Shown piece by piece: positions 8,306-63,252 of a stretch of DNA of 64,000 bases; within the stretch, counting starts at the first letter, position 1; every line of letters begins with the position of its first letter. Source of the DNA: a virus. Taxonomy: Duplodnaviria; Heunggongvirae; Uroviricota; Caudoviricetes. Position numbers and translations under genes: made by a program. The DNA lies in the IMG/VR virus record IMGVR_UViG_3300029533_000034; one strand, given 5' to 3'. A model generated the notes under the pieces. It did no database searches. It saw nothing but the letters and a program-made list of their open reading frames with translations, and had not been told where the DNA came from.

Positions 8306-8453
8306 CAACAAATCACTTAAGGGGGAATGGGAAACCGTTCCTTCTTTTTCTGCCTGCAAGCAGACGATGTATACAGTTTATCTCAAAAATTAAAATATGA
8401 GGTTTTTCAGTATACGGTTGCAAAAATATTTTTAAAAAACTTTCTAAATTCCT

Positions 8454-8492
8454 TTGACAATTTTCCAGATGGCGCAATATGTATCATGTAAA
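8454..8492 (+). promoter_or_regulatory. recurring phage promoter, copy 2
   Basis: TTGACA...GGCGCAATATGTATCATG. Confidence 0.55.
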
Positions 8493-8631
8493 GGTCATAA
8501 ACCGAGCTGCCAGGGTTACCGGCTGGCAGAAATCCTTTCGATATTTGTTTACGCTTCCGGGGAAACCCGGAAAGGAGCAGGAGGACAGCAGCACATGCTG
8601 CTTCCGGGTCCGATTCCCGGATGCTTCTTTT
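8490..8631 (+). ncRNA. structured ~140-nt RNA, family copy 1 (5' hairpin, GNRA hairpin, variable hairpin, tRNA T-arm-like hairpin, U-tract)
   Basis: about 85% identical to 3 other copies, with compensatory changes in the stems. Confidence 0.55.
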
Positions 8632-8695
8632 ACAAGACCGCACGAAGCGGCACAAAAACCATATAAACATGACAAAGTACAGGGAGATTAAAAAA

Positions 8696-10999
8696 ATGAA
8701 TCAGAATAAGAAGATAGCAGAGAAAAAATCAAGACCATACCAGCAGGAATGCATTGATAAGGTAGATAGCTTAAAAGAAGGAAGATTCCTGATTGCTCTT
8801 GCAACAGGGCTTGGGAAGACATGGATCTTCTCCCACTTTAAGAGATACGGAAGGGTACTTATTCTTTCACACAGGGATGAACTGGTCAACCAGCCGAGAC
8901 GGTATTTCGACTGTAGTTTTGGCGTAGAAAAGGCAGAAAACCATTCCAATGGGGAAGAGGTAGTATCTGCGAGTGTTCAGACACTCAGCCATGACTCCCG
9001 TCTTAAGCAGTATAAGCCGGACGATTTCCACACGATCATCATTGATGAGGCGCACCACGCTGCCGCACCATCCTATAAGAAGATCTTAAATTATTTTTCC
9101 GGCGCTAAGCGTGTAATCGGTGTCACGGCAACTCCGAAGCGTGGCGACAACGTCCGGTTAGATGACGTTTTTAACGAGATTATTTATGCAAAGGATCTTC
9201 GTTGGGGGATTAAAAATAAATATTTAAGTCCGGTGCACTGCCGGGAGGTCCGTGCAAAATATTCCCTGAAAGGCGTAAAAAAATCTATGGGGGATTTTAA
9301 TGTATCCGATTTGGACGGTTGTATTACGGAAGAAGCTGTAATAAGTGTTGCAAAAGTTCTTACAGACTGTCTCCAGGAGAATCGGCATATTCTTATTTAT
9401 TGTACTACTGTCAGAACCTGTAATTTCCTGAAGGCAGTAGTTGACAAACTGCTCCCGGAAAAAGAACGTGGCAGTGTTGCTGTTTTATCAGGGAAAACAC
9501 AGGAAGAAGATAGAAAAAATATGCTTGATGGTTTTATGAACGGGAGTGTCCGCGCCATTATTAACTGCATGGTTTTAACAGAAGGTACAGATCTTCCTAT
9601 TGCGGATACCATTATCAACTTCCGGCCGACGTGCAACGCGTCTTTGTATCAGCAGATCATCGGAAGAGGAACCCGGCTCTATGAAGGTAAGGAAAACTGT
9701 TTATGCATTGATATTCTTCCAGATGATGGCAGCGGGACAAGAAATCTGTGTACAGCTCTTACTCTTTTTGGTATAGATGCAAAACTTCTTGGAAAGAAAC
9801 AGTCTCGAATGCTTGAAGGTGAGATTGATCCGCTTGAGATTAGCGATGAAATTGCAGGACGATTTGCAGAACTTACAAAGGCGTATGAATATCGGTTGGA
9901 GCAGGTTAATCGCTTTGTGCAGGAGCAGGAAGAAATTATATCTTCTGCGCGGAAGAAACCACATGCAGATTTAAGCGACCTTGCGCATGCAGTAGATAAA
10001 TATAATTCAAAGAAAATGGATGAATTCCAAAATGATTATGATTTTCTTGGAATGGATTACTCACTTATGCCGGATACGGAACATCGTTATTGTATCAAAC
10101 CTACATGGAATGACCATATTTACCTTGCTGATCCAGATGTTATGGGTAATACAACAGTTACGTTTGATCTTACTGCCAGTGTCGGGAAATATTATATCGG
10201 TGAAATGAAAATGCAGGATGCAATTTCATTTGTTCATGATTTTTGTATGGTATCTCCAGATTATATGAAATATTCCTGGAACGTGGCATTACAAGATGAA
10301 TGGGGGAAAATAAAAGCAACTGAAAATCAAATTGGACGTCTTATGAATGAGTATGACGGGTTTCACAAAGGAAATATTAACAAGCTCCAAGCATCCAGAC
10401 TGATTGATCTTGCCTCTCGTATTTCGAAGATGAAGGCAGAGGGGAAAATGATGCTTATTACACCAAGAATGCAGGAAAAAACAATTGATAAAAAAAAGAA
10501 AATGTTTAAGGAAATACTCGAAAAGGAACTGAGGGCAAAAGAGCAGGGGCGTAGTGAGTTTGGAGAATTCCAGTCGAAAATCTTTGCTTTGGCAGAAAAA
10601 AAGAAAAAAGACGAAGAGAAATTAAAGAACCAAAAGCCTTTGGAAGAAGAAATGCTCGAAAATGGGGCAATTACAGTTAATATTGCTGTTTTTAGTTCAA
10701 AAAAAACAGCAAGCGATGCGCAGATAAAATTTCTTGGTAATTTAAAAGATAAATTAAAAACCAGAGGAGTGGCTGTTGATAAAAAAATTCCTTATATAGG
10801 AATGGGAGCAGAAGAGGCAAGTGTATATATTACTATATTAAAAACGCTTGTAGATCGTAACGTAGACCTTATAAAATATGGGGAAAAAATTTATTTTAAT
10901 CCAAATACAATCATGGGTGTTGTATTAAAACTAAAGGACACTTCATCCAGAGAAATTAAATGTTGTGTCCCGTTCGAAAAAATAGAAGAATTGAGATAA
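8696..10999 (+). CDS. SF2 (DEAD/DEAH-type) helicase with long K/E-rich C-terminal extension
   Basis: motifs GLGKT (I), IIDEAHH (II), GVTATP (III), QQIIGRGTR (VI); GGGAG RBS at the 8696 ATG. Confidence 0.8.
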   Translation: MNQNKKIAEKKSRPYQQECIDKVDSLKEGRFLIALATGLGKTWIFSHFKRYGRVLILSHRDELVNQPRRYFDCSFGVEKAENHSNGEEVVSASVQTLSHDSRLKQYKPDDFHTIIIDEAHHAAAPSYKKILNYFSGAKRVIGVTATPKRGDNVRLDDVFNEIIYAKDLRWGIKNKYLSPVHCREVRAKYSLKGVKKSMGDFNVSDLDGCITEEAVISVAKVLTDCLQENRHILIYCTTVRTCNFLKAVVDKLLPEKERGSVAVLSGKTQEEDRKNMLDGFMNGSVRAIINCMVLTEGTDLPIADTIINFRPTCNASLYQQIIGRGTRLYEGKENCLCIDILPDDGSGTRNLCTALTLFGIDAKLLGKKQSRMLEGEIDPLEISDEIAGRFAELTKAYEYRLEQVNRFVQEQEEIISSARKKPHADLSDLAHAVDKYNSKKMDEFQNDYDFLGMDYSLMPDTEHRYCIKPTWNDHIYLADPDVMGNTTVTFDLTASVGKYYIGEMKMQDAISFVHDFCMVSPDYMKYSWNVALQDEWGKIKATENQIGRLMNEYDGFHKGNINKLQASRLIDLASRISKMKAEGKMMLITPRMQEKTIDKKKKMFKEILEKELRAKEQGRSEFGEFQSKIFALAEKKKKDEEKLKNQKPLEEEMLENGAITVNIAVFSSKKTASDAQIKFLGNLKDKLKTRGVAVDKKIPYIGMGAEEASVYITILKTLVDRNVDLIKYGEKIYFNPNTIMGVVLKLKDTSSREIKCCVPFEKIEELR

Positions 11000-11069
11000 T
11001 AATATTATATTAAAAATAAAAGGTTGATACTATGTATAAAAATAAATACAATATTCTTTTAAAAAAATT

Positions 11070-11108
11070 TTGACGATTTTTAAGATGACGCAATATGTGT
11101 ATTGTAAA
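11070..11108 (+). promoter_or_regulatory. recurring phage promoter, copy 3
   Basis: TTGACG...GACGCAATATGTGT. Confidence 0.5.
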
Positions 11109-11247
11109 GGTTATAAACCGAGCTGCCAGGGTTACCGGCTGGCAGAAATCCTTTCGATATTTGTTTACGCTTCCGGGTAATACCCGAAAGGGATAGTGAG
11201 GACACAGCGTAAGCTGTTCTGGGTTCGACTCCCGGATATCTCTTTTT
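11105..11247 (+). ncRNA. structured ~140-nt RNA, family copy 2 (3' hairpin is GGGTTCGACTCCC, i.e. a canonical tRNA T-arm)
   Basis: paralog of 8490, 33063, 36227. Confidence 0.55.
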
Positions 11248-11286
11248 TAAATGAAATTACAGAAAAAACAATATGGAGGGAAAAAG

Positions 11287-11592: not shown

Positions 11593-11631
11593 GCAAACAA
11601 AGTTAGTGAATAGCTTTAAGCCACTGTTATA

Positions 11632-11866
11632 GTTGCACCCCGCAAGGGTGCAGGGTTGAAATATTATACTGAATCGTCGCTGCCTGCATAGATATAGTTG
11701 CATCCCTTATGGGATGTATGGGTTGAAATTCAATAGAAACAGATGCATTCGGAGGTGTTACAAGTTGCACCCCCGCAAGGGGTGCATGGGTTGAAAATAA
11801 GAAATGGTAGGAAGGAATTCAGATATGAACATTAGTTGCATCCCGCAAGGGGTGCAGGGGTGAAAT
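11632..11866 (+). CRISPR. CRISPR mini-array 1: 4 degenerate type I-C-like repeats (GTTGCACCCCGCAAGGGGTGCATGGGTTGAAAT), 3 spacers of 34-37 nt
   Basis: repeat/spacer periodicity read directly from the sequence. Confidence 0.8.
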
Positions 11867-19012: not shown

Positions 19013-19149
19013 ATTTTTATCATTTCAGGATGTCACGATTATAACGAAGCAAACAGAGGAATGGAGATTGGCTTTGGTATTTCTCTTATCCTCGCCCAAA
19101 TTGTTGTTACGTTGACATATCTGGCTTTTGGAGGTGTGTTGTAATTTCT

Positions 19150-32970: not shown

Positions 32971-33027
32971 ATTGAAAAGGATCAAGCAGGACACGGTGTA
33001 AGTTTTTTAAAAGCTCTCTAAGCTTCT

Positions 33028-33066
33028 TTGACATTTCAGGAGATGGCGCAAGATGTATCATGTAAA
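33028..33066 (+). promoter_or_regulatory. recurring phage promoter, copy 6
   Basis: TTGACA...GGCGCAAGATGTATCATG. Confidence 0.5.
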
Positions 33067-33205
33067 GACCATAAACCGGGCTGCCAGGTTACCGGCTGGC
33101 AGAAAACTCTTTCGATATTTGTTTACGCTTCCGGGTAATACCCGGAAGGGATAGTTGGTTCGCAGCGTAAGCTGTTCCGGGTCCCATTCCCAGATATCCC
33201 TTTTT
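33063..33205 (+). ncRNA. structured ~140-nt RNA, family copy 3
   Basis: paralog; loop and stem substitutions preserve the hairpins. Confidence 0.55.
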
Positions 33206-33275
33206 CAAATGAAATTACAGAAAAGTCTGGCGTCGTCCACACGATTCGTGCCCGTGAGCAAAGAGAACAAAGGAG

Positions 33276-33343
33276 CACACCCGGAAGGAATCGAACCCTC
33301 GTTGGCGGTTTTGGAGACCACTTTCTGTCCATCAGACAGGTGT
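33276..33343 (-). tRNA. tRNA-Trp (CCA)
   Basis: minus-strand cloverleaf; T-loop TTCGATT; anticodon loop cuCCAaa. Confidence 0.6.
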
Positions 33344-33349
33344 ATATAG

Positions 33350-33439
33350 CGCAGACACCGGGGTTCGAACCCGGACAGCGGTTGTGCCGCATGCCACATT
33401 AGCAGTGTGGAGGGGTACCAGTTACCTTTATATGTCTGC
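33350..33439 (-). tRNA. tRNA-Ser (GCT), long variable arm
   Basis: acceptor gcagaca/tgtctgc; anticodon loop cuGCUaa; T-loop TTCGAAC. Confidence 0.65.
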
Positions 33440-33444
33440 ATAAG

Positions 33445-33516
33445 AGGCATCGGAGGGAATCGAACCCTCACCTTCCGGGTTGCAACCGGACGCCTTAGCC
33501 GTTTGGCTACGATGCC
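33445..33516 (-). tRNA. tRNA-Cys (GCA)
   Basis: acceptor ggcatcg/cgatgcc; anticodon loop uuGCAac. Confidence 0.7.
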
Positions 33517-33547
33517 ATATATGGGTTCCCCTGATAAGGGAGGAGAG

Positions 33548-33631
33548 CGCTGTGCCATGGATTCGAACCTTGACATTCTTTCGGGATGGCGGTTTTTAAG
33601 ACCGCTGCTTTCCCGGTTGAGCCAGTACAGC
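33548..33631 (-). tRNA. tRNA-Leu (TAA), long variable arm, two stem mismatches
   Basis: anticodon stem gcggt/accgc, loop cuUAAaa; T-loop TTCGAAT. Confidence 0.5.
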
Positions 33632-33875
33632 AAAAATAAAGGCACACACCTCTCAATTGAAAGATGTATGCCCCGTTTTCTTAAGTATTTCCTATATTTT
33701 CCCAGAAATTCCCCAGCAATAATCACATTTCTTTCAATTTGAGACGGTATTTACGAGCACGATAACTGCACCAGCTGCATGACTGCGGCTGACTGATACT
33801 TCTCTGTGGACACTGTCTCATTTCTGTTGTCATCATTGTTTTTCCTTCCTTTCCTTGAATTTTTTCAATATTAAG

Positions 33876-33949
33876 TGTGCCTGGTGGGACTTGAACCCGA
33901 CGACGCCACGATTAAAAGTCGCGTGCTCTGCCAACTGAGCTACAGGCAC
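33876..33949 (-). tRNA. tRNA-Lys (TTT)
   Basis: acceptor gtgcctg/caggcac; D-arm TAGCTCAGTTGGCAGAGC; anticodon loop cuUUUaa. Confidence 0.7.
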
Positions 33950-33954
33950 ATGAG

Positions 33955-34026
33955 CGGATCAGGAGGGAATCGAACCCTCGTTTTCCGGTAGACAGCCGGG
34001 TGTAATAGCCTTTATACTACAGATCC
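33955..34026 (-). tRNA. tRNA with GTC anticodon (Asp?); unusual T at position 37
   Basis: canonical T-arm GAGGGTTCGATTCCCTC; anticodon loop cuGUCua. Confidence 0.5.
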
Positions 34027-34030
34027 ATAA

Positions 34031-34103
34031 AGCTCCCGTCCGGCTTCGAACCGGAAACCTTCTGATTACAAATCAGATGCACTGCCAGTTGTGCTACAGG
34101 AGC
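34031..34103 (-). tRNA. tRNA-Thr (TGT)
   Basis: acceptor gctcctg/cgggagc; anticodon stem tctga/tcaga, loop uuUGUaa. Confidence 0.6.
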
Positions 34104-34108
34104 AGGAA

Positions 34109-34181
34109 CACTTCCGACGGGTGCTGACCCCGCTATCTCCGCCGTGACAGGGCGGTGACTCTGCTGTTTGTCCTCGGAAGT
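34109..34181 (-). tRNA. non-canonical tRNA-like gene with a perfect Asp anticodon arm (ccgcc-cuGUCac-ggcgg) but T-loop GTCAGCA instead of TTCGA
   Basis: acceptor acttccg/cggaagt perfect 7 bp; D-stem 3 bp. Confidence 0.4.
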
Positions 34182-34185
34182 ATAG

Positions 34186-34267
34186 TGCGCTGGGGAGGAC
34201 TCGAACCTCCGGTGTTTCTTTGTGGCTGATTTACAGTCAGCTGTCTTCGCCGCTGGACTACCAACGC
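34186..34267 (-). tRNA. tRNA-Tyr (GTA), long variable arm
   Basis: anticodon stem gctga/tcagc, loop cuGUAaa; T-loop TTCGAGT. Confidence 0.65.
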
Positions 34268-34272
34268 ATGAG

Positions 34273-34344
34273 CTGATCCGGAGGGACTCGAACCCTCAAC
34301 GCCCCGGTTAACAGCCGGGTGCTCTACCATTGAGCTACGGATCA
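34273..34344 (-). tRNA. tRNA-Asn (GTT)
   Basis: acceptor tgatccg/cggatca; D-arm TAGCTCAATGGTAGAGC; anticodon loop cuGUUaa. Confidence 0.7.
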
Positions 34345-34345
34345 G

Positions 34346-34417
34346 AGCATGTGACGGGTCTCGAACCCGCCCGTCCTGCTTGGAAGGCAGGTGTGCCGCC
34401 AACAACACTTCACATGC
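34346..34417 (-). tRNA. tRNA-Gly (TCC)
   Basis: acceptor gcatgtg/cacatgc; anticodon stem cctgc/gcagg, loop cuUCCaa. Confidence 0.6.
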
Positions 34418-34984
34418 ATACGGATAAAAGAAGTGCCTGTTTTCTCTTATCCATTCAGTTTTTTACCGCATCGCTGCGGAGTGGACAGGAGTGGTAATGA
34501 TCCACCCTGTAAGGATTTTCAGTCCCTCGCTAATCCATCTCAGCTACCTGTCCATGGCTTTTCTGCAATAAAAAAGCCGCATCAAGAAATTTTCCTTCTT
34601 TCTGCGGTCATCTGCGTTTTGCAATATTTCGGTTTTAAGTGCCTGGTTTAAAATCGAAATCGACCGCGGGAAGGTGTATCATAATAGTTCTGTCCCCATG
34701 TTTTCCCGGATTTTGAGCATGAGAAACTAAACATATTGCTGAAATCGCCGTATGTTCTACAATCATTATTAAAATTTTTACTGCTCATCATCTTTAACAT
34801 GGTTTTCTTTTCCTTTCATTTTAATTAATGCTGGATAAACAAAAAGCCCGTCACTTAACTCAAAGCTACACATTCAAATAGCTCTGAGTTAAAAGACAGG
34901 CACTTCTTTTATCTCATGAGCCTATCATATCATACTGATCGTGAAGTGTCAACAGGAAATTTGAAAAAATAAAACAAATAAAAA

Positions 34985-35635: not shown

Positions 35636-35718
35636 GATTTTTCTCCCTTCATCAATGGTTTTATTTACACTTTTAATATGAAATATTAAACATATTTCAA
35701 AAAATTTCCCGGAAATTT

Positions 35719-35757
35719 TTGACGAAATTTCAAAAGGCGCAATATATGTAATGAAAG
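35719..35757 (+). promoter_or_regulatory. recurring phage promoter, copy 7
   Basis: TTGACG...GGCGCAATATATGT. Confidence 0.5.
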
Positions 35758-35872
35758 GAGGAGGAAATACAAATTGGAATGTTTGACATGCAAGAAACAC
35801 TGATCGCAGGGAGGCCGCTGTTCAGAGAACGTGAGAAACTGCCTGCATTATGAGGAAGAACCAAGAGGAAAA

Positions 35873-36106
35873 ATGGTCCGGACAGAACTGTCTTTTCGTA
35901 TGGATGCAGAGGCGGAAACTCCGGTGGTCAGATTTGGAGAGAAAATACTGGTTTCCGATGGTTCAAAAGCGGTCGAGATGACTGTGATCAAGATCAACTG
36001 GGTTAATCTTCGGGATATGCTCTGCAATGTATCCGCGGATTATCATGAGAATGAGATGCCGCGATTTGAGAAAGAAAAGAAGTTCAATGTAGTTGAGAGA
36101 AAATAG
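35873..36106 (+). CDS. small hypothetical protein whose stop codon abuts a solitary CRISPR repeat
   Basis: AGAGGAAAAATG RBS. Confidence 0.45.
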   Translation: MVRTELSFRMDAEAETPVVRFGEKILVSDGSKAVEMTVIKINWVNLRDMLCNVSADYHENEMPRFEKEKKFNVVERK

Positions 36107-36136
36107 TTGTACCCTATGCGGTGCATGGGTTGAAAC
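36106..36136 (+). CRISPR. solitary CRISPR repeat unit (GTTGTACCCTATGCGGTGCATGGGTTGAAAC)
   Basis: single repeat with an intact hairpin and no adjacent spacer-repeat units. Confidence 0.5.
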
Positions 36137-36190
36137 TAAAGTCACATTTAACATGAAACAAAATTTTTTCAAAAACTTTCAAAATTCCCT

Positions 36191-36229
36191 TGACGAATCC
36201 CCAGATGGCGCAATATGTATCATGTAAAG
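36191..36229 (+). promoter_or_regulatory. recurring phage promoter, copy 8
   Basis: TTGACG...GGCGCAATATGTATCATG. Confidence 0.55.
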
Positions 36230-36365
36230 GTCATAAACCGAGCTGCCAGGGTTACCGGCTGGCAGAAATCCTTTCGATATTTGTTTACGCTTCCGGGGAA
36301 ACCCGGAAGGGATAGTGAGGACGCAGTGTAAGCTGTTCCGGGTCCGATTCCCGGATATCCCTTTT
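36227..36365 (+). ncRNA. structured ~140-nt RNA, family copy 4
   Basis: paralog of 8490, 11105, 33063. Confidence 0.55.
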
Positions 36366-36645
36366 AACTGCCGCAGGTGGTCTTCTCAAATTCAGCTGTC
36401 TGCGGCCTGTGGGATTTCCCACTGAACCAAAATAACGATAACCGCCAGAATTACAGCAGCGTGCGTTGGCGTGAGAACTATCGGCGCACAGGGATTACTC
36501 CTTTCATATTTATCTATCACACCTTTTCGTACATCGTATGGAGAGGCTGTGGAACAGCAGGTGCGTAGCCACGGGCTATTCCGGGATCGTTCCCCAGATG
36601 TTCCATTTTTAAAACATTAAAACAAATTACAGGAGGAAAATAGCG

Positions 36646-37368
36646 ATGGAAAAAGAAGTGGTATATGTCGCAGAACTGGATTCCGATGTTGACGATGTCG
36701 TTGCAGCAAATTACTTATATAATGAAGGGGTCTTAAAATGCGTAGTATGTGACCCATATCCAAGGACACCGGAGGGATTGGCACGAAAGGGAAAGCTGGA
36801 AGCGCTTGGCATCGATGTGGTTAAGAAAATGCCACCGGTTGCAAAATATGTGTTTGTTGGCGGCGCACTTACGGCTGTTGCTGGCTATATCCGGATGCAC
36901 CATGTCGACTGGCTGGTAATGAACGGAGGCTTTGTTGGAGCAAATATTGCGACCCTTGAACTGGATAAGTTCAAGGGGAAGAACACTGTCCGTACCTTCA
37001 ATTTCAACTGCGATGTTGTGGCTGCAGATACGGTTTTGAAAACTGATGAGAAGCATATTTCTCATATTGTTCTTGTTGGAAAGAACGTCTGCCACGATGT
37101 CCGGAATACGAGGAATGGTATCTGGAGTGGCGAGAAATACAAGAAATTGTTTGATGAGTACCGCGTTAAAGATGAGAAGCGTCAACATGACCTACTTGCC
37201 TGCCATGAGGGACTTGCATTCCTGCGGGGAACCAGTAAGATCTGCGAGTATGAGACAGTAAGGCCGTACAATACAGGTTTGAATGGCAAGCTGACACAGT
37301 GGGGCAGCACAAAAACTATGGAAACACCATATCGCGAAGTGCTTGCCGCTGTTGGCTATCGGGATTAA
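36646..37368 (+). CDS. nucleoside hydrolase (IunH/RihA-like) family protein
   Basis: N-terminal Asp cluster ELDSDVDDVVA, plus MNGGF...GAN...TFNFNCDVVAA...VL...HD, colinear with the IU-nucleoside hydrolase motifs DxDxxxDD, MGG..GN..EFN..DPEAA. Confidence 0.5.
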   Translation: MEKEVVYVAELDSDVDDVVAANYLYNEGVLKCVVCDPYPRTPEGLARKGKLEALGIDVVKKMPPVAKYVFVGGALTAVAGYIRMHHVDWLVMNGGFVGANIATLELDKFKGKNTVRTFNFNCDVVAADTVLKTDEKHISHIVLVGKNVCHDVRNTRNGIWSGEKYKKLFDEYRVKDEKRQHDLLACHEGLAFLRGTSKICEYETVRPYNTGLNGKLTQWGSTKTMETPYREVLAAVGYRD

Positions 37369-37370
37369 AA

Positions 37371-37679
37371 GTTACACTCCGCGAGGGGTGTATGGGTTGA
37401 AATTGAATAAATAATGCATCATAAGATATTCCAAATTGTTGCACCCCGCGAGGGGTGCAGGGATTGAAATAAAAGAACCTCTTCGATTCCCGAACACCCT
37501 TGTCTAGGTTGCACCTCGTAAGAGGTGTATGGGTTGAAATCCGGATCTGCTCTGCGGTTAGCATGGCACCACGTTGTTGCACCCTGCGAAGGGTGTATGG
37601 GTTGAAATGTGTTACCATTCCATCTTCTCCACGTCTAACTCTAGTTGCCCCCCCCCGCGCGAGGGGCGCATGGGTTGAA
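37371..37679 (+). CRISPR. CRISPR mini-array 2: 5 degenerate repeats, 4 spacers (34-37 nt); starts 2 nt after the stop codon of the hydrolase gene
   Basis: read directly from the sequence. Confidence 0.85.
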
Positions 37680-37789
37680 ATTGATTTACAGCCGGGGCAA
37701 GAAAATGTACGCTACAAAGTCCTTTCGCACCTGTCTTTTCTGTGGTATACTAAAAGAATAAAAGATATATCCAAGGAGAAGGTTAAAGG

Positions 37790-38662
37790 ATGAGAAAAAG
37801 CATAAAAGATTTTGGAAATTTTGTGAGAAAAGATAATTACCCGGGACTTCCGGAAGAACTGAAAGAGTTTAACTATTTTTTGAGTGATGGGGAAACTGGT
37901 CATGTAATCATGGCTGTGCCGGAACACAAGTTGGAGAAGGCGGAAGAAAAAGGGGATAATCTGGATGACTATGAATGTCCGGTTCCGGTGGCATATGTTC
38001 TTAAGAATGGGTACCGGCTGTATAAGGACCATGTAATATGTCAGGTTCCGTACGATGAGAAACTGGGGATACGTATTCCGGAAGAATATTACGAACCATT
38101 GATCATTTCTACAGATGCCGGGAAAGCAGAGGAGCCGACATCCGGAGAGTTCCCTTATGAGAAAGGAAAATGCTATCCGGAATTTACAAACCATGCAGAA
38201 GCTGTAGTTGCGGACATCGTTAAGGATTACGTGCAGATTCGCGTATTTTTCAAAAATCCTACAGAAAACGAGATTGCACAGTTTTCTCCGGATTCCAGAC
38301 TGGAAATCCGTTTTACAGAGATGGATGGGACCGGTCTGTTTACCGTCAAAGCTGGCAATTTGTCATGGATGGACGCACCATACCATGCGAAACTTGCAAA
38401 AGATTTGTCAGGATTCAATTTTACAGCAAAAGGTGAAATCCCACTGTATCTCCTCCTGATCGACTCGTCGATTGGTGAAGTTAAAGCGGTTCGAAATGTC
38501 CATCTGTCAGAAGAGTTTTCGGGAAAGTTGAGAAATCTGGTGGATCGTCAGATTAACTCTGATTTTGATAGGAAGAAATATGCTGATATCCTGTCCAATA
38601 TTTACCTTCTATTCGGTTCAGATGAGCTGGCGGATGCCAGTACCATTAAGTGCCAGTGGTAG
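37790..38662 (+). CDS. hypothetical 290-aa protein sandwiched between CRISPR arrays 2 and 3
   Basis: AAGGAGAAGG RBS. Confidence 0.6.
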   Translation: MRKSIKDFGNFVRKDNYPGLPEELKEFNYFLSDGETGHVIMAVPEHKLEKAEEKGDNLDDYECPVPVAYVLKNGYRLYKDHVICQVPYDEKLGIRIPEEYYEPLIISTDAGKAEEPTSGEFPYEKGKCYPEFTNHAEAVVADIVKDYVQIRVFFKNPTENEIAQFSPDSRLEIRFTEMDGTGLFTVKAGNLSWMDAPYHAKLAKDLSGFNFTAKGEIPLYLLLIDSSIGEVKAVRNVHLSEEFSGKLRNLVDRQINSDFDRKKYADILSNIYLLFGSDELADASTIKCQW

Positions 38663-38682
38663 GTAAGAAGATATACTTTACT

Positions 38683-38903
38683 GTTGCGCCCCATTGGGTG
38701 CATGGGTTGAAATCTGAAACCGAATAGATTGGATAGGACAGGCTGAGGTTGCACCCCGCGAGGGGCGTATGGGTTGAAATAGTCCGGACAATCAAAAACG
38801 ATATCGAAGAGCTGTCGTTGCACCCTGCGAGGGGTGTATGGGTTGAAATTGCAGAAAGATCAGGATTGGAAGGTTGCATCCTATGGGATGCATGGATTGA
38901 AAC
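38683..38903 (+). CRISPR. CRISPR mini-array 3: 4 degenerate repeats, 3 spacers (34, 36 and an unusually short 23 nt)
   Basis: read directly from the sequence. Confidence 0.8.
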
Positions 38904-38939
38904 GAACATATTTGTTATTATTTATTATTGAGATCAGAA

Positions 38940-38978
38940 AGGTCTGCAGTCAGTTAATCTGGCTGCAGATTTTTTTTG
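38940..38978 (+). terminator. rho-independent terminator (tctgcagtcag...ctggctgcaga + T8)
   Basis: inverted repeat plus T-run. Confidence 0.5.
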
Positions 38979-39006
38979 CAATTTTTCAAAAATTTTCCAA
39001 AATCTT

Positions 39007-39045
39007 TTGACGATTTTTTAAAAGGCGCAATATACATATTGAAGG
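39007..39045 (+). promoter_or_regulatory. recurring phage promoter, copy 9, directly upstream of cas5c
   Basis: TTGACG...GGCGCAATATACAT. Confidence 0.55.
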
Positions 39046-39086
39046 GATAAACAGGGGCTTGCCGCTGTTGATTACCAGAGTTAAAA

Positions 39087-39114
39087 GTTGTGCCCCTATG
39101 GGGTGCATGGGTAA
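39087..39114 (+). repeat. degenerate CRISPR-repeat-like element in the cas5c 5' UTR (GTTGTGCCCCTATGGGGTGCATGGGTAA)
   Basis: the 5' 24 nt match the repeat consensus; the 3' handle has diverged. Confidence 0.35.
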
Positions 39115-39126
39115 TAAGAGAAAGGA

Positions 39127-39801
39127 ATGGAAAAAGAAAAAATGGGAGTGAAACTAAAAGTCTGGGGAGATTATGCATTGTTCACCAGACCGGAACTGAA
39201 AACAGAACGGTATACCTATGACGTGATGACTCCGTCGGCAGCTAGGGGGATTCTGGAATCCATCTACTGGCATCCGGGATTACGGTGGTACGTAGATAAA
39301 ATCCACGTATTAAATCCGATTGCCACTACAAGCGTAAGAAGGAATGAACTTCTCAGCAAGATACCGAAATCAAATATGTTACAGGCATATAACGGCGGCG
39401 ATGTCAAGCTGTATAATTCGTCAAGAGACGATATTATCCAGAGGGCATCCGTGATCCTCCGTGATGTCAGCTACGTGATTGAAGCACATTTTGAAATGAC
39501 GGACAAGGCAAGCCCGACGGACAGCCCGGCGAAGTTTATCAGCATCTTTAATAACAGGGCAAGAAAAGGGGCGTGCTATTCGATGCCGTATTTCGGGGTA
39601 AGGGAATTTCCGGCACACTTTGAACTCTATGAAGGTGATGAAAAGATCCCATCCTGTTATGAAAGACTTCCGGACAGGGATTTCGGGCTGATGCTTTATG
39701 ACCTGGATTATTCCTGCGGAAGAGATATCCAGCCAATGTATTACCATGCAGTTATGAAAAATGGCATCATTGATGTCGGGAACAGTGAGGTGTTTCGATG
39801 A
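39127..39801 (+). CDS. cas5: type I-C Cas5c (Cas5d) crRNA-processing subunit
   Basis: N-terminal region VWGDYALFTRPELKTERYTYDVMTPSAARGILESIYWHP matches the Cas5d family signature. Confidence 0.9.
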   Translation: MEKEKMGVKLKVWGDYALFTRPELKTERYTYDVMTPSAARGILESIYWHPGLRWYVDKIHVLNPIATTSVRRNELLSKIPKSNMLQAYNGGDVKLYNSSRDDIIQRASVILRDVSYVIEAHFEMTDKASPTDSPAKFISIFNNRARKGACYSMPYFGVREFPAHFELYEGDEKIPSCYERLPDRDFGLMLYDLDYSCGRDIQPMYYHAVMKNGIIDVGNSEVFR

Positions 39802-41537
39802 TCCTGCAGTCACTTGTAAAATTATATGAAACGCTTGCAGACCAGGGGAAAGTATCCCGTCCCGGCTGGTGCAATGCAAAGGTATCCTATGCAGTGGTGT
39901 TAAACCACGATGGGATAATCCAGGATATTGTTTCCGTAAAGCAGGAGATACAGAGAGGGAAAAAAACTGTTGAAATTCCGACAGTTATGCAGGTTCCAGA
40001 GATGGTCACCCGGGGTAACAACATTGCTTCCGGCTTTCTCTGCGAAAATGCAAAGTATCTCTTTGGAATTGATGAGAAGATGAACCCGCGTACGCTTGAC
40101 TGTTTTAAAGCAGCAAGGAAGAAACATCTTGATATCCTTGATGTCGTGGATGAGTCGGCAGCACAGGCAGTGTGCCGCTTTTTCCGTTCATGGGATCCGG
40201 AACAGGCACTGGATCACCCGGCAGTTGCGAAGCTTGCGGAAAAGTTTTATAAAGGCGGGAACCTCGTATTTGAGGTAGACGGCAAATATGTGCATGACAA
40301 TGAGGCCGTGCGCAGAGCATGGCTGGATTACAGCAGCGTACCATATGAAATGGTAACAGGAAGATGCCTGGTTACCGGGAAGAAAGCAGAGATTGCCCGC
40401 ACACATGGGAAGGTCAAAGGAGTGCCGGGAACACAGTCATCCGGTGCGGCGCTTGTATCCTTTAACGGCGCGTCCCTTGAGTCTTATGAGAAAACACAAA
40501 GTTATAACGCGCCGATCAGCACCTATGCGGCGTATGCATATGTGACAGCATTAAATTACCTGCTTTCCACGGACGGGTACCACAGCAAGGTAGGAGATTT
40601 CATGGTGGTCTTCTGGACGGATTCCGGGGATGTGGATGATGTAAGCAGACTGCGGAAGATGATGGGGAGCGCCAATGAAAAAGATCATGTCCTTGCAGAT
40701 CCGGATGAAAAACTGTACGTGCTCTGTCTTGCACCGAATGCCGGCAGAATTGCAGTCCGGTTCTTCTATGAAGATGCCATCGGAGTGATCTGGAAGAACC
40801 TGTTGGAACATGCCCGCCGGATGATGATCATAAAGCCGGCGTTTGAGGATCAGGAATTCATCAATATCTGGCAGATGCTTATGGAGACGGTAAACCAGAA
40901 CCTTACAGACAGGACCCCGGTTCCGCATATGGCTGCGATGACGTTACAGTCGGTCATTTCGGATACCAAGTATCCGCAGAGCCTGTATGCAGGAGTGCTG
41001 TCCCGCATCCGTGCCGAGCACAAAGGCGTTACTTACAGAAAAGCAGCGGTCATCAAGGCTTTTTTAATAAAGAACTATAAATGGGAGGAAGGGAAAAATA
41101 TGGAAGTATTAAACGAAGACTGCAGAGACCGTGCGTATATCCTCGGCAGGCTGTTTGCGGTAATGGAAAAGACACAGAAGGAAGCAATTGATAACATCAA
41201 CCAGACGATCTGTGACAAGTTTTACAATTCCGCATGCACAACGCCAGGATCGGTATTTCCGGTGCTGATCAGACTGTCCAACAGTCATTTAAGCAAGCTG
41301 AAACGCACAAAGCCGGGCAGAGGATATTATTTTGCGGCTAAGATCCAAAGTTTGATGGGTCTGATTCCGGTTACAGCGGATGATCCGGGGTTCCCGAAGC
41401 GTTTCACGTATGAGGATCAGGGCAAATTCGCACTTGGTTATTACCACCAGATGCAGGCAGAATATACAAGCAATAAGTCAAAAGACAGCGATCCTGAAAG
41501 CAACCAGACAAATGCAGAGAAGATGGAGGAAAACTAA
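39798..41537 (+). CDS. cas8c: type I-C Cas8c (Csd1) large subunit
   Basis: N-terminus MILQSLVKLYETLADQGKVSRPGWCNAKVSYAVVL matches Csd1; ATGA start/stop overlap with cas5. Confidence 0.9.
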   Translation: MILQSLVKLYETLADQGKVSRPGWCNAKVSYAVVLNHDGIIQDIVSVKQEIQRGKKTVEIPTVMQVPEMVTRGNNIASGFLCENAKYLFGIDEKMNPRTLDCFKAARKKHLDILDVVDESAAQAVCRFFRSWDPEQALDHPAVAKLAEKFYKGGNLVFEVDGKYVHDNEAVRRAWLDYSSVPYEMVTGRCLVTGKKAEIARTHGKVKGVPGTQSSGAALVSFNGASLESYEKTQSYNAPISTYAAYAYVTALNYLLSTDGYHSKVGDFMVVFWTDSGDVDDVSRLRKMMGSANEKDHVLADPDEKLYVLCLAPNAGRIAVRFFYEDAIGVIWKNLLEHARRMMIIKPAFEDQEFINIWQMLMETVNQNLTDRTPVPHMAAMTLQSVISDTKYPQSLYAGVLSRIRAEHKGVTYRKAAVIKAFLIKNYKWEEGKNMEVLNEDCRDRAYILGRLFAVMEKTQKEAIDNINQTICDKFYNSACTTPGSVFPVLIRLSNSHLSKLKRTKPGRGYYFAAKIQSLMGLIPVTADDPGFPKRFTYEDQGKFALGYYHQMQAEYTSNKSKDSDPESNQTNAEKMEEN

Positions 41538-41538
41538 T

Positions 41539-42450
41539 ATGAGCAAACCGATTCAGAACAAATATGATTTTGTAGTATTATTTGACGTAGAGAATGGAAA
41601 CCCAAACGGCGATCCGGATGCTGCAAACATGCCAAGGGTTGATCCAGAGACCGGCATCGGTCTTGTGACAGACGCCTGCTTAAAGCGAAAGATCCGCAAC
41701 TATGTGGAAACAGCAAAGGAAGATGCAGACGGTTTCAAGATCTACATCAAAGAGGGTATTCCGTTGAACCGCAGCGATCTTAAGGCAATCGAAAACCTTG
41801 GTGTTGATGTTGATGACAGTAAGAAGGCACTTGAGGATGTCAAGAAACTGAAAAAGACCGATGAGAACGTAGACCTTAAGCTCCGTGACTATATGTGCAG
41901 CAACTACTACGATATCCGTACGTTCGGTGCTGTTATGACCACTTTTACAAAGGCGGCATTAAACTGTGGGCAGGTACGCGGCCCGGTACAGATTGGCTTT
42001 GCAAAAAGTATTGATCCTGTTTTCAGCCAGGATATTACTGTAACCAGAGTTGCGATCACAACCGAAAAGGATGCCGAAAAGAAGAACACCGAGATGGGAA
42101 GAAAGAGCATTATCCCTTATGGTCTCTACCGCGTGGAAGGATATGTTTCTGCCAACCTTGCCCGCAAGACCACCGGTTTTTCCGAAGATGATCTGGATCT
42201 TCTCTGGAAAGCCATCATCAATATGTTTGAAAATGACCATTCTGCAGCACGCGGGAAGATGGCGGTACGTGAGCTGATTGTATTCAGGCATGACAGCGAA
42301 CTCGGCAACTGTCCTTCCTACAAGCTGTTTGAAGCAGTTGATGTCAAGAAGAACGATGATGTCGAGTTTCCTCGCAAATACTCTGATTACACCGTAAAGA
42401 TCCATGAGGATGCAATCCCGGGTGGTGTGACGATGACGCGCATGATTTAA
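41539..42450 (+). CDS. cas7: type I-C Cas7c (Csd2) backbone subunit
   Basis: N-terminus MSKPIQNKYDFVVLFDVENGNPNGDPDA is the Csd2 signature; the ORF-track start at 41380 is an in-frame upstream extension. Confidence 0.9.
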   Translation: MSKPIQNKYDFVVLFDVENGNPNGDPDAANMPRVDPETGIGLVTDACLKRKIRNYVETAKEDADGFKIYIKEGIPLNRSDLKAIENLGVDVDDSKKALEDVKKLKKTDENVDLKLRDYMCSNYYDIRTFGAVMTTFTKAALNCGQVRGPVQIGFAKSIDPVFSQDITVTRVAITTEKDAEKKNTEMGRKSIIPYGLYRVEGYVSANLARKTTGFSEDDLDLLWKAIINMFENDHSAARGKMAVRELIVFRHDSELGNCPSYKLFEAVDVKKNDDVEFPRKYSDYTVKIHEDAIPGGVTMTRMI

Positions 42451-42470
42451 AAGTGCTTCCGGCAGCCACA

Positions 42471-42497
42471 AAGCAGCCCGTTTTTTGAGGGCTGCAC
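42471..42497 (+). terminator. terminator hairpin (gcagcccg-TTTTTTGA-gggctgc)
   Basis: inverted repeat with internal T-run just after cas7. Confidence 0.45.
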
Positions 42498-42698
42498 CTG
42501 CCGGTTGTATTGGGATGCCTGGTCCAGGTGCGAACCGGAGACGTACGTAGTTTCCAGAGGAGGTTCGCACGGGGGTGAGAAGGCGAGATGTACAAGAGAG
42601 CGAGAATCCCAACCACGGGAGGCAGTTGTGGATGGGTTAATTAGGGAAATTGTTTAATATTTTGGCGGACAGGAAACAGGTTTCCGTTCGCGTTTACA

Positions 42699-43130
42699 GT
42701 GGCGCCCGTGGAGGGGCGCATGGGTTGAAACAAATTAAAATGAGGAACACCATATTTTTCACGTTGTACCCCCCCCAACGAGGGGGGTACAAGGGTTGAA
42801 ATTCCTGTGGCAAATCCATAAACAGCGCGAGTTGCACCCCACAAGGGGTGCAAGGGTTGAAATAGAAGTGTAATGTAAAATCTCCATGCTCTATTCAGTT
42901 GCACCCCACAAGGGGTGTATGGGTTGAAATATATAAAAATGATGAATATGTAAAAATAAAAGAGTTGCATCCCTTATGGGATGTATGGGTTGAAATCACT
43001 GCTGCCCTTTGTATCTTCTCCGTGGTAAAACGTTGCATCCCTTATGGGTGCATGGGTTGAAAAGATTGTGACAAATCCATATCTTCGGGGAAGGTAGTCG
43101 CGCCCGCGAGGGGGTATATGGATTAAGGAA
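42699..43130 (+). CRISPR. CRISPR mini-array 4: 7 degenerate repeats (31-40 nt, last one decayed), 6 spacers of 28-35 nt
   Basis: read directly from the sequence. Confidence 0.85.
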
Positions 43131-43340: not shown

Positions 43341-43424
43341 TCGCTGTAAAAGCTGTCTCTTTCAGGGGCAGCTTTTTTGTATGTGGGAAAATTTTTAAAA
43401 AAATAAAAAAGTTTCCATAATCTT

Positions 43425-47628: not shown

Positions 47629-48537
47629 ATGAAAATAAGTTTGATAGACGTTGACGGGCATAATTTCCCAAGCCTGCCTCTTATGAAGCTGTCTGCTTGG
47701 CATAAGAAGAAAGGGAATGTGGTTGAATGGTATGATCCACTGACCGCATGGCAAAATCCGCCGGACAAGGTATACATGAGTAAAGTGTTTACTTTTACAC
47801 CGGATTATCCTCATCCGGTATGTGCCAGTGAAGTAGTAAAAGGCGGAACTGGATACCATTATCCAGACGGTGGTGAACCTCTGCTTCCAGAGATCGAGCA
47901 TTTCTATCCGGATTACAGTCTTTATCCGGATTTATGCAAGGACACAGCGTATGGCTTTCTGACAAGGGGATGCCCGCGCGGGTGCGATTTTTGTATCGTA
48001 GGGAAGAAAGAGGGCAGATGTTCTGTAAAGGTCGCAGATTTGTCGGAGTTTTGGAACGGTCAGAAAAATATAGTCCTGCTTGATCCGAATATGTTTGCAT
48101 GCAGAGATTGGAAAGATTTAAGCCAACAGCTCATTGACAGTGGTGCGTGGGTAGATTTTTCCCAAGGTTGCGATATTCGAATTATGACAGAGGAAAAAGC
48201 AGAATACATTCGGCAGATGAAAATTAAGAACATCCATTTTGCATGGGACAGATACGAGGACAGAGACAAAATCGTTCCACGGTTTGAGATGTTTAAGCAA
48301 CTTACCGGGTGGGATTACAGGAAAATGACGGTATATGTTCTGTGTGGATTTAATACCACCATTGAACAGGACTTGGAGCGAATATATACGCTTCGGGATC
48401 TCGGTTACAGTCCTTATGTGATGATTTATGACAAATATAAGTTGAAACAGGGCGATGAACTGAAAAAGTTACAGCGTTGGGTGAATTCGAGATTTGTTTT
48501 TGCCGCTGTAAAAGAATTTGAAGATTATAAGCCGTAA
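47629..48537 (+). CDS. radical-SAM-like protein (CPRGCDFC = CxxxCxxC) with N-terminal B12-binding-like domain
   Basis: GGAGAAAAGAATG RBS; CxxxCxxC motif at about aa 115. Confidence 0.5.
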   Translation: MKISLIDVDGHNFPSLPLMKLSAWHKKKGNVVEWYDPLTAWQNPPDKVYMSKVFTFTPDYPHPVCASEVVKGGTGYHYPDGGEPLLPEIEHFYPDYSLYPDLCKDTAYGFLTRGCPRGCDFCIVGKKEGRCSVKVADLSEFWNGQKNIVLLDPNMFACRDWKDLSQQLIDSGAWVDFSQGCDIRIMTEEKAEYIRQMKIKNIHFAWDRYEDRDKIVPRFEMFKQLTGWDYRKMTVYVLCGFNTTIEQDLERIYTLRDLGYSPYVMIYDKYKLKQGDELKKLQRWVNSRFVFAAVKEFEDYKP

Positions 48538-55806: not shown

Positions 55807-55838
55807 GACAAAAAATGCGAAGTACAAGGAGAAAAATT

Positions 55839-56471
55839 ATGGGAAATTTAAAGAAAATTGCTGTATTAACACTGATTGCCGGCATGTTGTGCGCATGTAC
55901 CGGGTGCGGGTTGTTTGATAGTGAGGTTAATGAGTTGAACGGAACAATAAAAGGAAATACCTATAATATTTCCTTTTATTCCAATGAAGGAGAGAAATTC
56001 ATGGAAATGTCCGGTCAGAAGATTGACATGAATTCGAATACTGTTGAAGAACCTACATATACGGATAGCGGGTGGGGATATACCCAGACTCTTTCCAGTG
56101 TAGTCACAATTACTGTAGATGGCAAGGAAGTTGAAAGCTGTGGAACTACAATGTTGTTTGCAGAAAATGGCCTGTCGCCGGATGTTGATTTTACACAGCC
56201 GGATAAAATTAACAGTAAGACGGATGGGAAGCTGTCTGATAATACTATTATTGCCAAGACTATAAATAAATATAAAAACTATTTTGGAAAGTCTAGGATT
56301 GTAGTCATTCAGTCACAACTTGGAGATCCAATCTGCGCATATTCCGGGGATGAAGTGTATTGGAAAGTGTGCAAGGACCTACCAAAGACAACAAAACTGA
56401 TGGTTGATGGAAAGGCGTTGTATATCCACCGTGCGAATTTCCAGATCATCGACAAAGCACTTCTTAAATAA
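55839..56471 (+). CDS. lipoprotein
   Basis: AAGGAGAAAAATTATG RBS; signal peptide + Cys. Confidence 0.55.
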   Translation: MGNLKKIAVLTLIAGMLCACTGCGLFDSEVNELNGTIKGNTYNISFYSNEGEKFMEMSGQKIDMNSNTVEEPTYTDSGWGYTQTLSSVVTITVDGKEVESCGTTMLFAENGLSPDVDFTQPDKINSKTDGKLSDNTIIAKTINKYKNYFGKSRIVVIQSQLGDPICAYSGDEVYWKVCKDLPKTTKLMVDGKALYIHRANFQIIDKALLK

Positions 56472-62685: not shown

Positions 62686-63252
62686 ATGGATGGAATATAT
62701 TATAAAAATGTGGATATTTACGATTTGCCATCAATACTGGAAAACGGATTGCTCAGTATGGATGAATCCGGCAATAATAATTGGCAGGATAACAACCGTG
62801 TAGACAACCGGACAGATGTCGTATATTTATTCCGACCGGTAAATGAAGGAACTTTGCTGGAAATTCCATCATTCCCTGAATATGGTGTTGCACTGGTAGA
62901 ATGTATCGCGGATGCCGAACCATCCAAAATGTCATTGCAGGACTGCCATTTTGGAAAATACAGGGAATATATTGCAAAAAGAATTGCCCCGGAAAATATA
63001 TTGCGTGTATTTATACCTAAACTTTTCGAGAAAAATATTGATATTGCATCGGATAAGATATGTTTATGCAGGATGAAAGCAAGTGTGTATGGAAAAGATG
63101 GACTTGTCGAGGCATCTGCAGATACTTTGAAACTGTTTGCTGAAACAGCACCAGTACGCTGGACACAGATTGACGGGTATTTCCGAGGAATATACAATGA
63201 CGGAAGTGGAGTATTCGACCTTTATAATGTAAGATACCAGATTCCGGAATAA
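62686..63252 (+). CDS. hypothetical protein
   Basis: ORF. Confidence 0.5.
   Translation: MDGIYYKNVDIYDLPSILENGLLSMDESGNNNWQDNNRVDNRTDVVYLFRPVNEGTLLEIPSFPEYGVALVECIADAEPSKMSLQDCHFGKYREYIAKRIAPENILRVFIPKLFEKNIDIASDKICLCRMKASVYGKDGLVEASADTLKLFAETAPVRWTQIDGYFRGIYNDGSGVFDLYNVRYQIPE

Follow-up and report, generated by a model that had tools for sequence, protein, structure and literature searches.

Type I-C CRISPR variants without Cas3 and Cas1-2 have already been described in phages (Al-Shayeb et al. 2020, PMC7162821), and the parts of that report on phage-encoded systems also cover the targeting of other phages by phage CRISPR and propose that phages with host-like repeats borrow their host's Cas proteins. 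Here, we compare with these systems a locus in the Caudoviricetes virus IMGVR_UViG_3300029533_000034 of IMG/VR, of which 64,000 nucleotides were analyzed as one stretch (hereafter, the window). The locus carries a cas5c-cas8c-cas7c operon and, upstream of it, two genes, gene 1 and gene 2, that alternate with CRISPR mini-arrays (Table 1). A first-pass annotation had proposed the two as accessory or effector parts of a Cas3-less Cascade and had named as an alternative that they are cargo merely hitch-hiking with it. Our analyses lend no support to the former and favor the latter: gene 1 and gene 2 are probably independent, moron-like accessory genes of the phage that hitch-hike by the arrays and are not components of Cascade. 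The evidence comes from where their relatives are found: cas5, cas7, cas8, or type I-C repeats are present within 10 kb at none of the 51 loci with a gene 1 homolog outside the window's own lineage, and neither gene was found in any of the 79 closest relatives of the window's Cas7 outside that lineage.

As characterized in those parts of the 2020 report, the published systems are like the window in having cas5c-cas8c-cas7c without cas3, cas1, cas2, or cas4, in belonging to a large phage, in their compact arrays, and in carrying a spacer against other phages. In the window, the three genes score 168, 389, and 340 bits with the profiles TIGR01876, TIGR01863, and TIGR02589 (cas5c, cas8c, and cas7c), all over the cut-offs, and Pfam and PADLOC concur with the calls. 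Cas3, Cas4, Cas1, and Cas2 from the closest complete systems find no match in the 64-kb window or in its sister contigs, and the description of the operon as Cas3-less, made at first pass, thus holds within the window. The window differs from the published systems in having several mini-arrays interleaved with unrelated genes, and genes resembling gene 1 or gene 2 do not figure as system parts where that report describes its systems. The "helicase instead of Cas3" mentioned there recalls a superfamily 2 (SF2) helicase of the window that lies 28 kb from the cas operon and stands beside a mini-array. This helicase (792 aa, 8621-10999; ResIII and Helicase_C domains, RadD- or type I R-subunit-like) has a copy of the small-RNA cassette on either side, at 8537 and 11153, and the three-repeat mini-array follows. 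We considered it as a hidden Cas3 and rejected it: models of generic SF2 and restriction-type helicases fit the protein much more closely than those of Cas3, and tblastn shows no resemblance to the Cas3 of related systems.

The relationships of the operon itself are best seen from the 80 closest Cas7 relatives, which come from a Cas7 alignment, are 71-91% identical, and lie on metagenome contigs. Searches with tblastn and hidden Markov models (HMMs) detected gene 1 and gene 2 in only one of these contigs (L109), and that contig belongs to the window's own lineage. Nearly all relatives that extend far enough have cas4-cas1-cas2 downstream, and many have an open reading frame (ORF) of 720-800 aa upstream of cas5, which proved to be Cas3 in the two cases checked in Pfam. 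The phage operon therefore seems to derive by reduction from complete I-C systems of the Lachnospiraceae type; gene 1 and gene 2 are outside the ancestral I-C module. Among phage contigs of IMG/VR, L097 (7873-13228) has a truncated cas5, cas8c, a cas7 75% identical to that of the window, cas4, cas1, cas2, and an array; an endolysin gene stands in the place of cas3, and further upstream genes encode NrdD and a reverse transcriptase.

The 51 loci with gene 1 homologs comprise L013-L018 and 45 IMG/VR loci (L020-L064), and cas genes were sought in them by tblastn with Cas5, Cas8c, and Cas7 of both the window and L065, a contig with a divergent phage operon that is discussed below. Apparent matches to the core of the repeat in L020-L047 are due to chance, lying inside the coding sequence of the gene 1 homolog and of another gene. 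Homologs of 26-76% identity occur in many other large phages, in surroundings that vary from phage to phage: one of 75% identity lies amid small unknown genes on 219-kb phage-like contigs (L013-L015) and one of 62% identity on a 432-kb contig (L016) among genes for PIF1 helicases, a Dam methylase, a C-C-bond lyase, and an ATP-grasp protein, while elsewhere the neighbors are DUF5052 genes, PIF1 helicases, or a homolog of the window's gene 47629-48537. The DUF5052 gene directly adjoins the gene 1 homolog, on either side, in many phages (L013, L020, L021, L024, and others), and in the window, it is found at 55815-56471, 19 kb from gene 1; the two may be loosely paired in function or travel in one mobile cassette. 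The family is large, with 385 matches among 90%-identity clusters; tblastn of gene 1 against the INPHARED phages gave no match. Such a distribution is the behavior of a mobile accessory gene, and it speaks against gene 1 as CRISPR linked, as outside the lineage its homologs turned up only at loci without cas genes or repeats within 10 kb.

Gene 2 leads to the same conclusion less directly. Its protein has two domains, an N domain (residues ~1-105) and a C domain (~120-289) joined by a disordered linker (106-117). At first pass, no domain had been recognized in it, and this remains true of Pfam, NCBIfam, and PADLOC, none of which gives a match, but the C domain (residues 123-285) matches nearly the whole of PHROG 12389 (E 4e-17), a family annotated as of unknown function; to this, gene 2 adds the N domain of ~100 aa, which also exists as a separate gene family. 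Structure searches matched no named protein in the PDB and nothing but unnamed phage proteins in BFVD. A word-indexed search found five relatives, whereas 1,562 representatives at 50% identity (E 0.001 or better) emerged when HMMs were searched exhaustively. In these, the domains occur singly (~100 and ~175 aa), in swapped order, or with other partners, among them helix-turn-helix (HTH) domains fused to the N domain (P0125 and P0172) and a 265-aa protein of ~160-kb phages (L074-L092) that ends in the N domain. Full-length relatives of 37-43% identity are found on a 108-kb phage contig (L009) with no cas genes or repeats nearby, and two tandem family copies lie on a short contig (L019).

The genomic settings of the gene 2 family are equally diverse. 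N-domain genes were found in a temperate phage (L098), in the early region of another phage (L100), in a conjugative element (L102) that also encodes a relaxase, a coupling protein of the TraG type, and ArdA, and in the Clostridium scindens phage phiCs5676-1, where genes for a helicase, a PAPS reductase, and ParB precede it; further family members reside in plasmids of Streptomyces, Paenibacillus, and Oscillibacter. No cas genes were found near the relatives L009-L012, at 28 IMG/VR N-domain loci (L069-L096), or, within 10 kb, at the ~40 other family loci as a whole, which represent ~12 sequence or context groups. In both the conjugative element (L102:1492-7256) and phiCs5676-1 (OR574845.1, 18990-22862), genes for an SNF2-type helicase and a PAPS-reductase-like protein are found near that of the N domain, with ParB in the phage, and this set may be the more usual genomic company of the N domain. 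Gene 1 and gene 2 share with phage morons and other variable-region accessory genes their promoter and terminator signals and patchy spread, the shuffling of domains, and, for the families, a site among small early and anti-restriction genes. Gene 2 thus belongs to a large unannotated family of mobile-element proteins with two separable domains, of which the N domain is promiscuous. From its gene context, it would most likely be an early-expressed factor of host takeover or counter-defense, with the N domain binding a target on which the C domain acts. Iyer and colleagues reportedly described, in 2017, modular domains of "polyvalent proteins" from phages and conjugative elements; gene 2 matches no domain described in that catalog (and none in Pfam), so the likeness is one of behavior and not of membership.

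One lineage breaks the pattern. On contigs L065-L068, a protein 62% identical to the N domain of gene 2 (P0290) is encoded two genes upstream of a cas5-cas8c-cas7 operon that likewise lacks cas3 but is divergent, its Cas5 and Cas7 being 30-31% identical to those of the window. On the 95-kb phage contig L065 (8001-15114), the order is the N-domain gene, a 353-aa unknown protein, a 292-aa HTH_3 protein overlapping the start of cas5, cas5-cas8c-cas7, a 15-repeat array, and a resolvase. The CRISPR connection of gene 2 was thus not refuted completely: ~40 family loci are without cas genes, and one second co-location exists. This second case would be explained if gene 2 alone were CRISPR related and its N-domain family had a modulating effect on type I-C systems, such as that of an anti-CRISPR (Acr) or regulator blocking or redirecting the I-C machinery of the host while the phage relies on its own Cascade, for the family would then be expected near two unrelated Cas3-less phage operons. 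The HTH gene abutting the L065 cas5 and the fusions of N domain and HTH fit such a role. These fusions, confined to distant members of the family, recall those of Acr with anti-CRISPR-associated (Aca) proteins. Neighborhoods of an anti-defense type, such as that with ArdA on the conjugative element, point the same way. We nevertheless hold the proposal to be distinctly unlikely, given the many loci without cas genes and the reach of the family to Streptomyces plasmids. With 290 aa and two domains, gene 2 is unlike the typical small Acr proteins, it has no named structural match, and no HTH gene adjoins it in the window. No relatives of the L065 Cas7 were found in IMG/VR, and beside its N-domain gene, L065 carries a homolog of another accessory gene of the window (62686-63252), so that the co-location may reflect a common pool of accessory genes; moreover, the N domain is much more alike between the two phages than are the cas genes, which weakens the link to CRISPR. 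A bolder variant holds that the N domain belongs to a family working together with Cas3-less type I-C Cascades of phages, be it as a regulator, as a factor against host CRISPR, or as an adaptor through which an effector other than Cas3, in this case the fused C domain, reaches targets bound by Cascade. It is suggested by the presence of the domain 0.5-2 kb from two Cas operons with only ~30% protein identity between them, but we give it very little credence.

If the two genes are accessory cargo, their interleaving with the arrays needs another explanation, and we believe that transcription may provide it. Gene 1 and gene 2 sit upstream of the operon in a variable region that is rich in arrays and prone to recombination, and mini-arrays 2 and 3 would be genuine sources of CRISPR RNA with no promoter element of their own, most likely riding in the 3' untranslated parts of the gene 1 and gene 2 transcripts and released from these by Cas5c. 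Such read-through would account for the interleaving, and the proteins would need no functional tie to Cascade. Several facts weigh against this account as a whole. The co-transcription of genes and arrays is deduced from promoter and terminator scans, and promoter-like sites are no more numerous here than in shuffled sequence. The loci cover 10 kb on each side, and cas genes further out in the other phages would be missed. The presence of an N-domain gene beside the L065 operon, described above, exceeds expectation if Cas3-less I-C operons are rare in phages. Finally, gene 1 and gene 2 fill the position upstream of cas5 that cas3 holds in the closest complete systems, and both are kept in every contig of the lineage examined (L001-L008 and L109).

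The last two of these facts, together with the failure to find any effector other than Cascade in the window, are what one would expect if gene 1, gene 2, or both were subunits of the Cas3-less Cascade, recruited after R-loop formation in place of Cas3, with gene 1 perhaps attacking nucleosides or nucleotides near the target. We regard this as very unlikely. The conservation beside the cas genes, although seen in nine of nine sister contigs, lies in a single shallow lineage of 90-95% protein identity and hence is not independent evidence; the interleaving of genes and arrays, too, is conserved just there. Counted across divergent lineages, co-location with cas genes is nil for gene 1 and for the gene 2 family amounts to one more lineage (L065-L068) against ~40 loci without cas genes. 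Neither protein matches a PADLOC or Cas profile or has a nuclease or helicase fold, the synonymous divergence of the two genes is unlike that of the cas genes, and a repeat on a Faecalimonas chromosome (both below) makes the borrowing of a host Cas3 plausible. In sum, a functional link of gene 1 to Cascade is unsupported, and that of gene 2 is weak.

What, then, does gene 1 do? The first-pass annotation had called it nucleoside-hydrolase (NH) like, and the search results bear this out at the level of fold. Its best Pfam match is IU_nuc_hydro (PF01156; E 9e-6), in which residues 51-179 align with profile positions 100-227, but the score of 26 bits is below the gathering cut-off of 34.2, which leaves gene 1 outside the family in the strict sense. 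The family profile is nonetheless matched at E 0.001 or better by 28 of 30 members of the gene 1 family, the best at 1.4e-8. An AlphaFold2 model built on 30 homologs has a predicted local distance difference test score (pLDDT) of 94.4 and a predicted template modeling score (pTM) of 0.92, and with Foldseek, all its top matches in the PDB are NH-fold proteins (6zk3, 6zk5, 4kl0, 4p5f, and 3fz0; E 2e-6 to 1e-3; template modeling scores 0.45-0.61). The best are the maize enzymes NRh2b and NRh3 (6zk3 and 6zk5, E 2e-6), followed by the XopQ/XOO4466 effectors and IG-NH, with just generic Rossmann-like matches below and no unrelated fold among the leading ones. As modeled, gene 1 thus has the alpha/beta fold of nucleoside hydrolases. 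Other searches based on sequence gave nothing: gene 1 matched no PDB chain sequence, its family profile found none even at E 10, and there was no match in PHROGs, PADLOC, or NCBIfam.

The active-site motifs agree with this assignment in part. In the 30-member alignment, the N-terminal Asp cluster D12-S-D14-V-D16-D17 is invariant, a DxDxDD two residues shorter than the canonical DxDxxxDD; the shortened motif and the MGG core had been correctly noted at first pass, the latter as MNGG at 92-95 with N93 invariant. The EFN and DPEAA also named there are not present as such. Where EFN is canonical, gene 1 has NFN (119-121; N119 and N121 invariant), and DPEAA is replaced by CDVVAAD (122-128; D123 invariant). 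Further invariant residues are K146, N147, C149, H150, H181-D182, C186, and E188; the Pfam alignment takes in NFN and ends before H181. Compared with the enzymes of PF01156 (plant NRh, 6zk3; IG-NH, 3fz0; XopQ, 4p5f), gene 1 has the same fold, the N-terminal Asp cluster, and the MNGG, NFN, and xHD motifs but differs in its DxDxDD, in NFN for EFN, in its sub-cut-off Pfam score, in being phage borne, and in length: with 240 aa, it is ~70 residues below the classical enzymes (about 310 aa), the C-terminal part being missing. Its distant relatives (26-37% identity) in phages of 130-570 kb have 285-299 aa and a TDxGxDPDD variant of the motif.

Taken together, the assignment holds for the fold and for the probable chemistry, and the protein would most likely be a Ca2+-dependent N-ribohydrolase. 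The ribosyl moiety would be bound through a Ca2+ ion held by D12, D14, D16, and D17 plus D182, and the N-glycosidic bond hydrolyzed with H181 as a possible acid for the leaving group; the substrate would be a nucleoside or a small molecule derived from a nucleotide, and the enzyme would serve the nucleotide economy of the phage or remove a nucleoside-based molecule of the host. In another reading, gene 1 would be a counter-defense enzyme and not a metabolic one, independent of the phage CRISPR, that destroys a nucleoside-derived immune signal or a toxic nucleotide (for example, the ADP-ribose-derived signals of Thoeris or modified nucleotides). The ribose and Ca2+ site appears preserved in the predicted NH fold, the structural matches include XopQ, an NH-fold effector crystallized with ADP-ribose (4p5f), and the gene moves among the variable accessory regions of many large phages under strong purifying selection. 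On the other side stand the missing PADLOC and PHROGs matches, a literature search that returned nothing relevant on nucleoside hydrolases in connection with phages, anti-defense, or CRISPR, and the homolog of the 432-kb phage amid genes of DNA metabolism, which fits a role in nucleotide or DNA-modification metabolism equally well. We consider this reading rather unlikely.

The features of the locus are collected in Table 1. Mapping of repeats, ORFs, and cas genes bears out the gene-array order reported at first pass: a solitary repeat, copy 4 of a small-RNA cassette, gene 1, array 2, gene 2, array 3, a terminator, and a promoter element, followed by a degenerate repeat, cas5c, cas8c, cas7c, and array 4.

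Table 1. Features of the gene 1-gene 2-cas locus and of a further mini-array (positions in the window)
Feature	Position	Strand	Details
Further mini-array	11630-11796		Three repeats; type I-C-like repeat
Solitary type I-C-like CRISPR repeat	36106-36135	+	Directly 3' of the stop codon of ORF 35831-36106
Small-RNA cassette copy 4	about 36162-36365	+	Upstream of gene 1
Gene 1	36646-37368	+	ORF of 240 aa; AGGAGG 9 nt upstream
CRISPR mini-array 2	37371-37681	+	5 repeats, 4 spacers; begins 2 nt past the gene 1 stop
Promoter-like site upstream of gene 2	37724-37751	+	TTCGCA-16-TG-TATACT; putative function
Gene 2	37790-38662	+	ORF of 290 aa; AAGGAG upstream
CRISPR mini-array 3	38683-38903	+	4 repeats, 3 spacers
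Intrinsic-terminator-like hairpin	38936-38976	+	18 pairs, then T run; closes the gene 2/array 3 unit
Repeated promoter element	38983-39047	+	Upstream of the cas operon; further copies 35695-35759 and 36166-30
Duplicate of gene 1 3' end and first array 2 repeat	39057-39117	+	Degenerate repeat part, 39088-39117
cas5c	39127-39801	+	Profile match
cas8c	39798-41537	+	Profile match
cas7c	41539-42450	+	Profile match
CRISPR array 4	42699-43128	+	6 repeats plus a degenerate terminal one; terminator 43348-43376

Both ORFs are where the first-pass annotation had placed them, and both are real genes under strong purifying selection. Against the related sister contig L001, the ratio of nonsynonymous to synonymous substitution rates (dN/dS) is 0.066 for gene 1 and 0.113 for gene 2, in the same range as the 0.03-0.08 of the adjoining cas genes; these ratios and the homolog counts rule out that the ORFs are spurious. 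A megablast search of 36000-43000 against the INPHARED phages gave no match.

The region has a mosaic history. The stretch between the promoter element and cas5 that duplicates the last ~9 codons of gene 1 together with its stop and the array 2 repeat that comes first includes the C-terminal peptide VLAAVGY, which is conserved in gene 1 homologs of phages without arrays, and the fragment thus derives from gene 1. In the degenerate repeat of this duplicate, the hairpin is intact, the 3' handle is mutated (ATGGGTAATAA), and the end lies 10 nt before the start codon of cas5; the segment could serve the autoregulation of the operon by offering a binding site to Cas5c, or it could be a plain recombination scar. 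Repeat-mediated recombination has evidently rearranged the region. In L001, all that is left of array 2 are two degenerate repeats, accompanied by ~600 bp of unrelated DNA, and the spacer set of array 3 is different, and spacer sets are nearly all different between sister contigs. In L003 (6988-8214), an IS110-family transposase lies just upstream of gene 1, indicating that the region tolerates insertions. Synonymous divergence (dS) from L001 is 0.32 for gene 1 and 0.48 for gene 2, compared with 0.73-0.95 for cas5, cas8c, and cas7, and the lower values of the two genes point to recombination histories differing from those of the cas genes, that is, to a mosaic.

The arrays flanking the two genes seem to be in working order. 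The type I-C-like repeat (GTTGCACCC..GGGTG.ATGGGTTGAAAT) gives 11 pattern matches in the window and none in 100 shuffles; repeats are 31-33 nt and spacers 23-40 nt long, those of array 2 having repeats of 33 nt, the last degenerate at its 5' end. The array 3 spacer at 38781-38816 matches four IMG/VR phage contigs of 40-56 kb (L104-L107) over 36 of 36 positions, and its protospacer, in a gene for a 135-aa HTH regulator (L104:9033-9069), is directly 3' of TTC, the known protospacer adjacent motif of type I-C systems. The flanking arrays are thus genuine guides aimed at rival phages, probably temperate ones, and by its sequence, array 3 appears functional in principle. Of two spacers scanned in IMG/VR, the other had no match, and the window's spacers found no protospacers in all the locus sequences gathered here.

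A near-identical repeat (GTTGCACCCCGCGTGGGGTGCATGGGTTGAAAT) was found where a chromosomal contig ends in a Faecalimonas sp. metagenome-assembled genome (CAYLRF010000017.1; L108:4640-4671), beside genes of sugar metabolism. The Faecalimonas bacterium is a likely host, or a relative of the host, with an array that looks compatible with the phage's type I-C system, and the phage, a large one of the gut, probably infects Lachnospiraceae. The repeat suggests that a host I-C system could lend the phage its Cas3 and Cas1-2, and with a Cas3 to borrow, a substitute effector encoded by the phage is unnecessary, though possible. Interference would probably rely on the Cas3 of the host or on binding alone.

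The signals for expression are distributed unevenly. The repeated promoter element (TTGAC-N17-TATGTA/TATACA) lies upstream of the small-RNA cassette that precedes gene 1 and of cas5 but not of arrays 2 or 3, and the only strong terminator in the stretch is that after array 3. The candidate promoter of gene 2 resembles an extended -10 site (TG-TATACT), and its core (TTTTCTGTGGTATACT) is kept in L001 despite differing sequence further upstream. The small-RNA cassette occurs in four copies (8420-8640, 11036-11250, 32994-33210, and 36156-36365), each combining a promoter-like TTGAC(A/G)-N17-TATGTA with ~150 nt of RNA that is highly conserved and a hairpin that, with the TTTT after it, looks like a terminator. 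This hairpin also resembles the T-arm of tRNA (CCGGGTCCGATTCCCGG), and 36315-36357 gives a weak, sub-threshold match to the bacterial Y RNA model (E 0.035); the cassette may encode a Y-RNA-like or tRNA-mimicking RNA. No Rfam family reaches its gathering score in the region, which has two weak matches at chance level. Just upstream of the region, ten tRNA genes are clustered at 33275-34553 on the minus strand, opposite to nearly all other genes, and an additional tRNA-Met gene lies outside this cluster at 19149.

Overall, our analyses remove as unsupported the tempting idea of tying a nucleoside hydrolase to a Cascade that has no nuclease. What they leave is a compact NH-fold subfamily that is large, well conserved, common in large gut phages, and unstudied, with invariant residues at the putative catalytic site, and in gene 2, a very large, two-domain family of mobile-element proteins that has neither annotation nor structural relatives and would be a reasonable target in screens for anti-defense functions. 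The locus itself is a clear case of mini-arrays scattered between ordinary genes, and probably transcribed from the promoters of those genes, in a phage that targets rival phages; as such, it bears on the expression and renewal of phage-borne arrays that have neither leaders nor adaptation genes.

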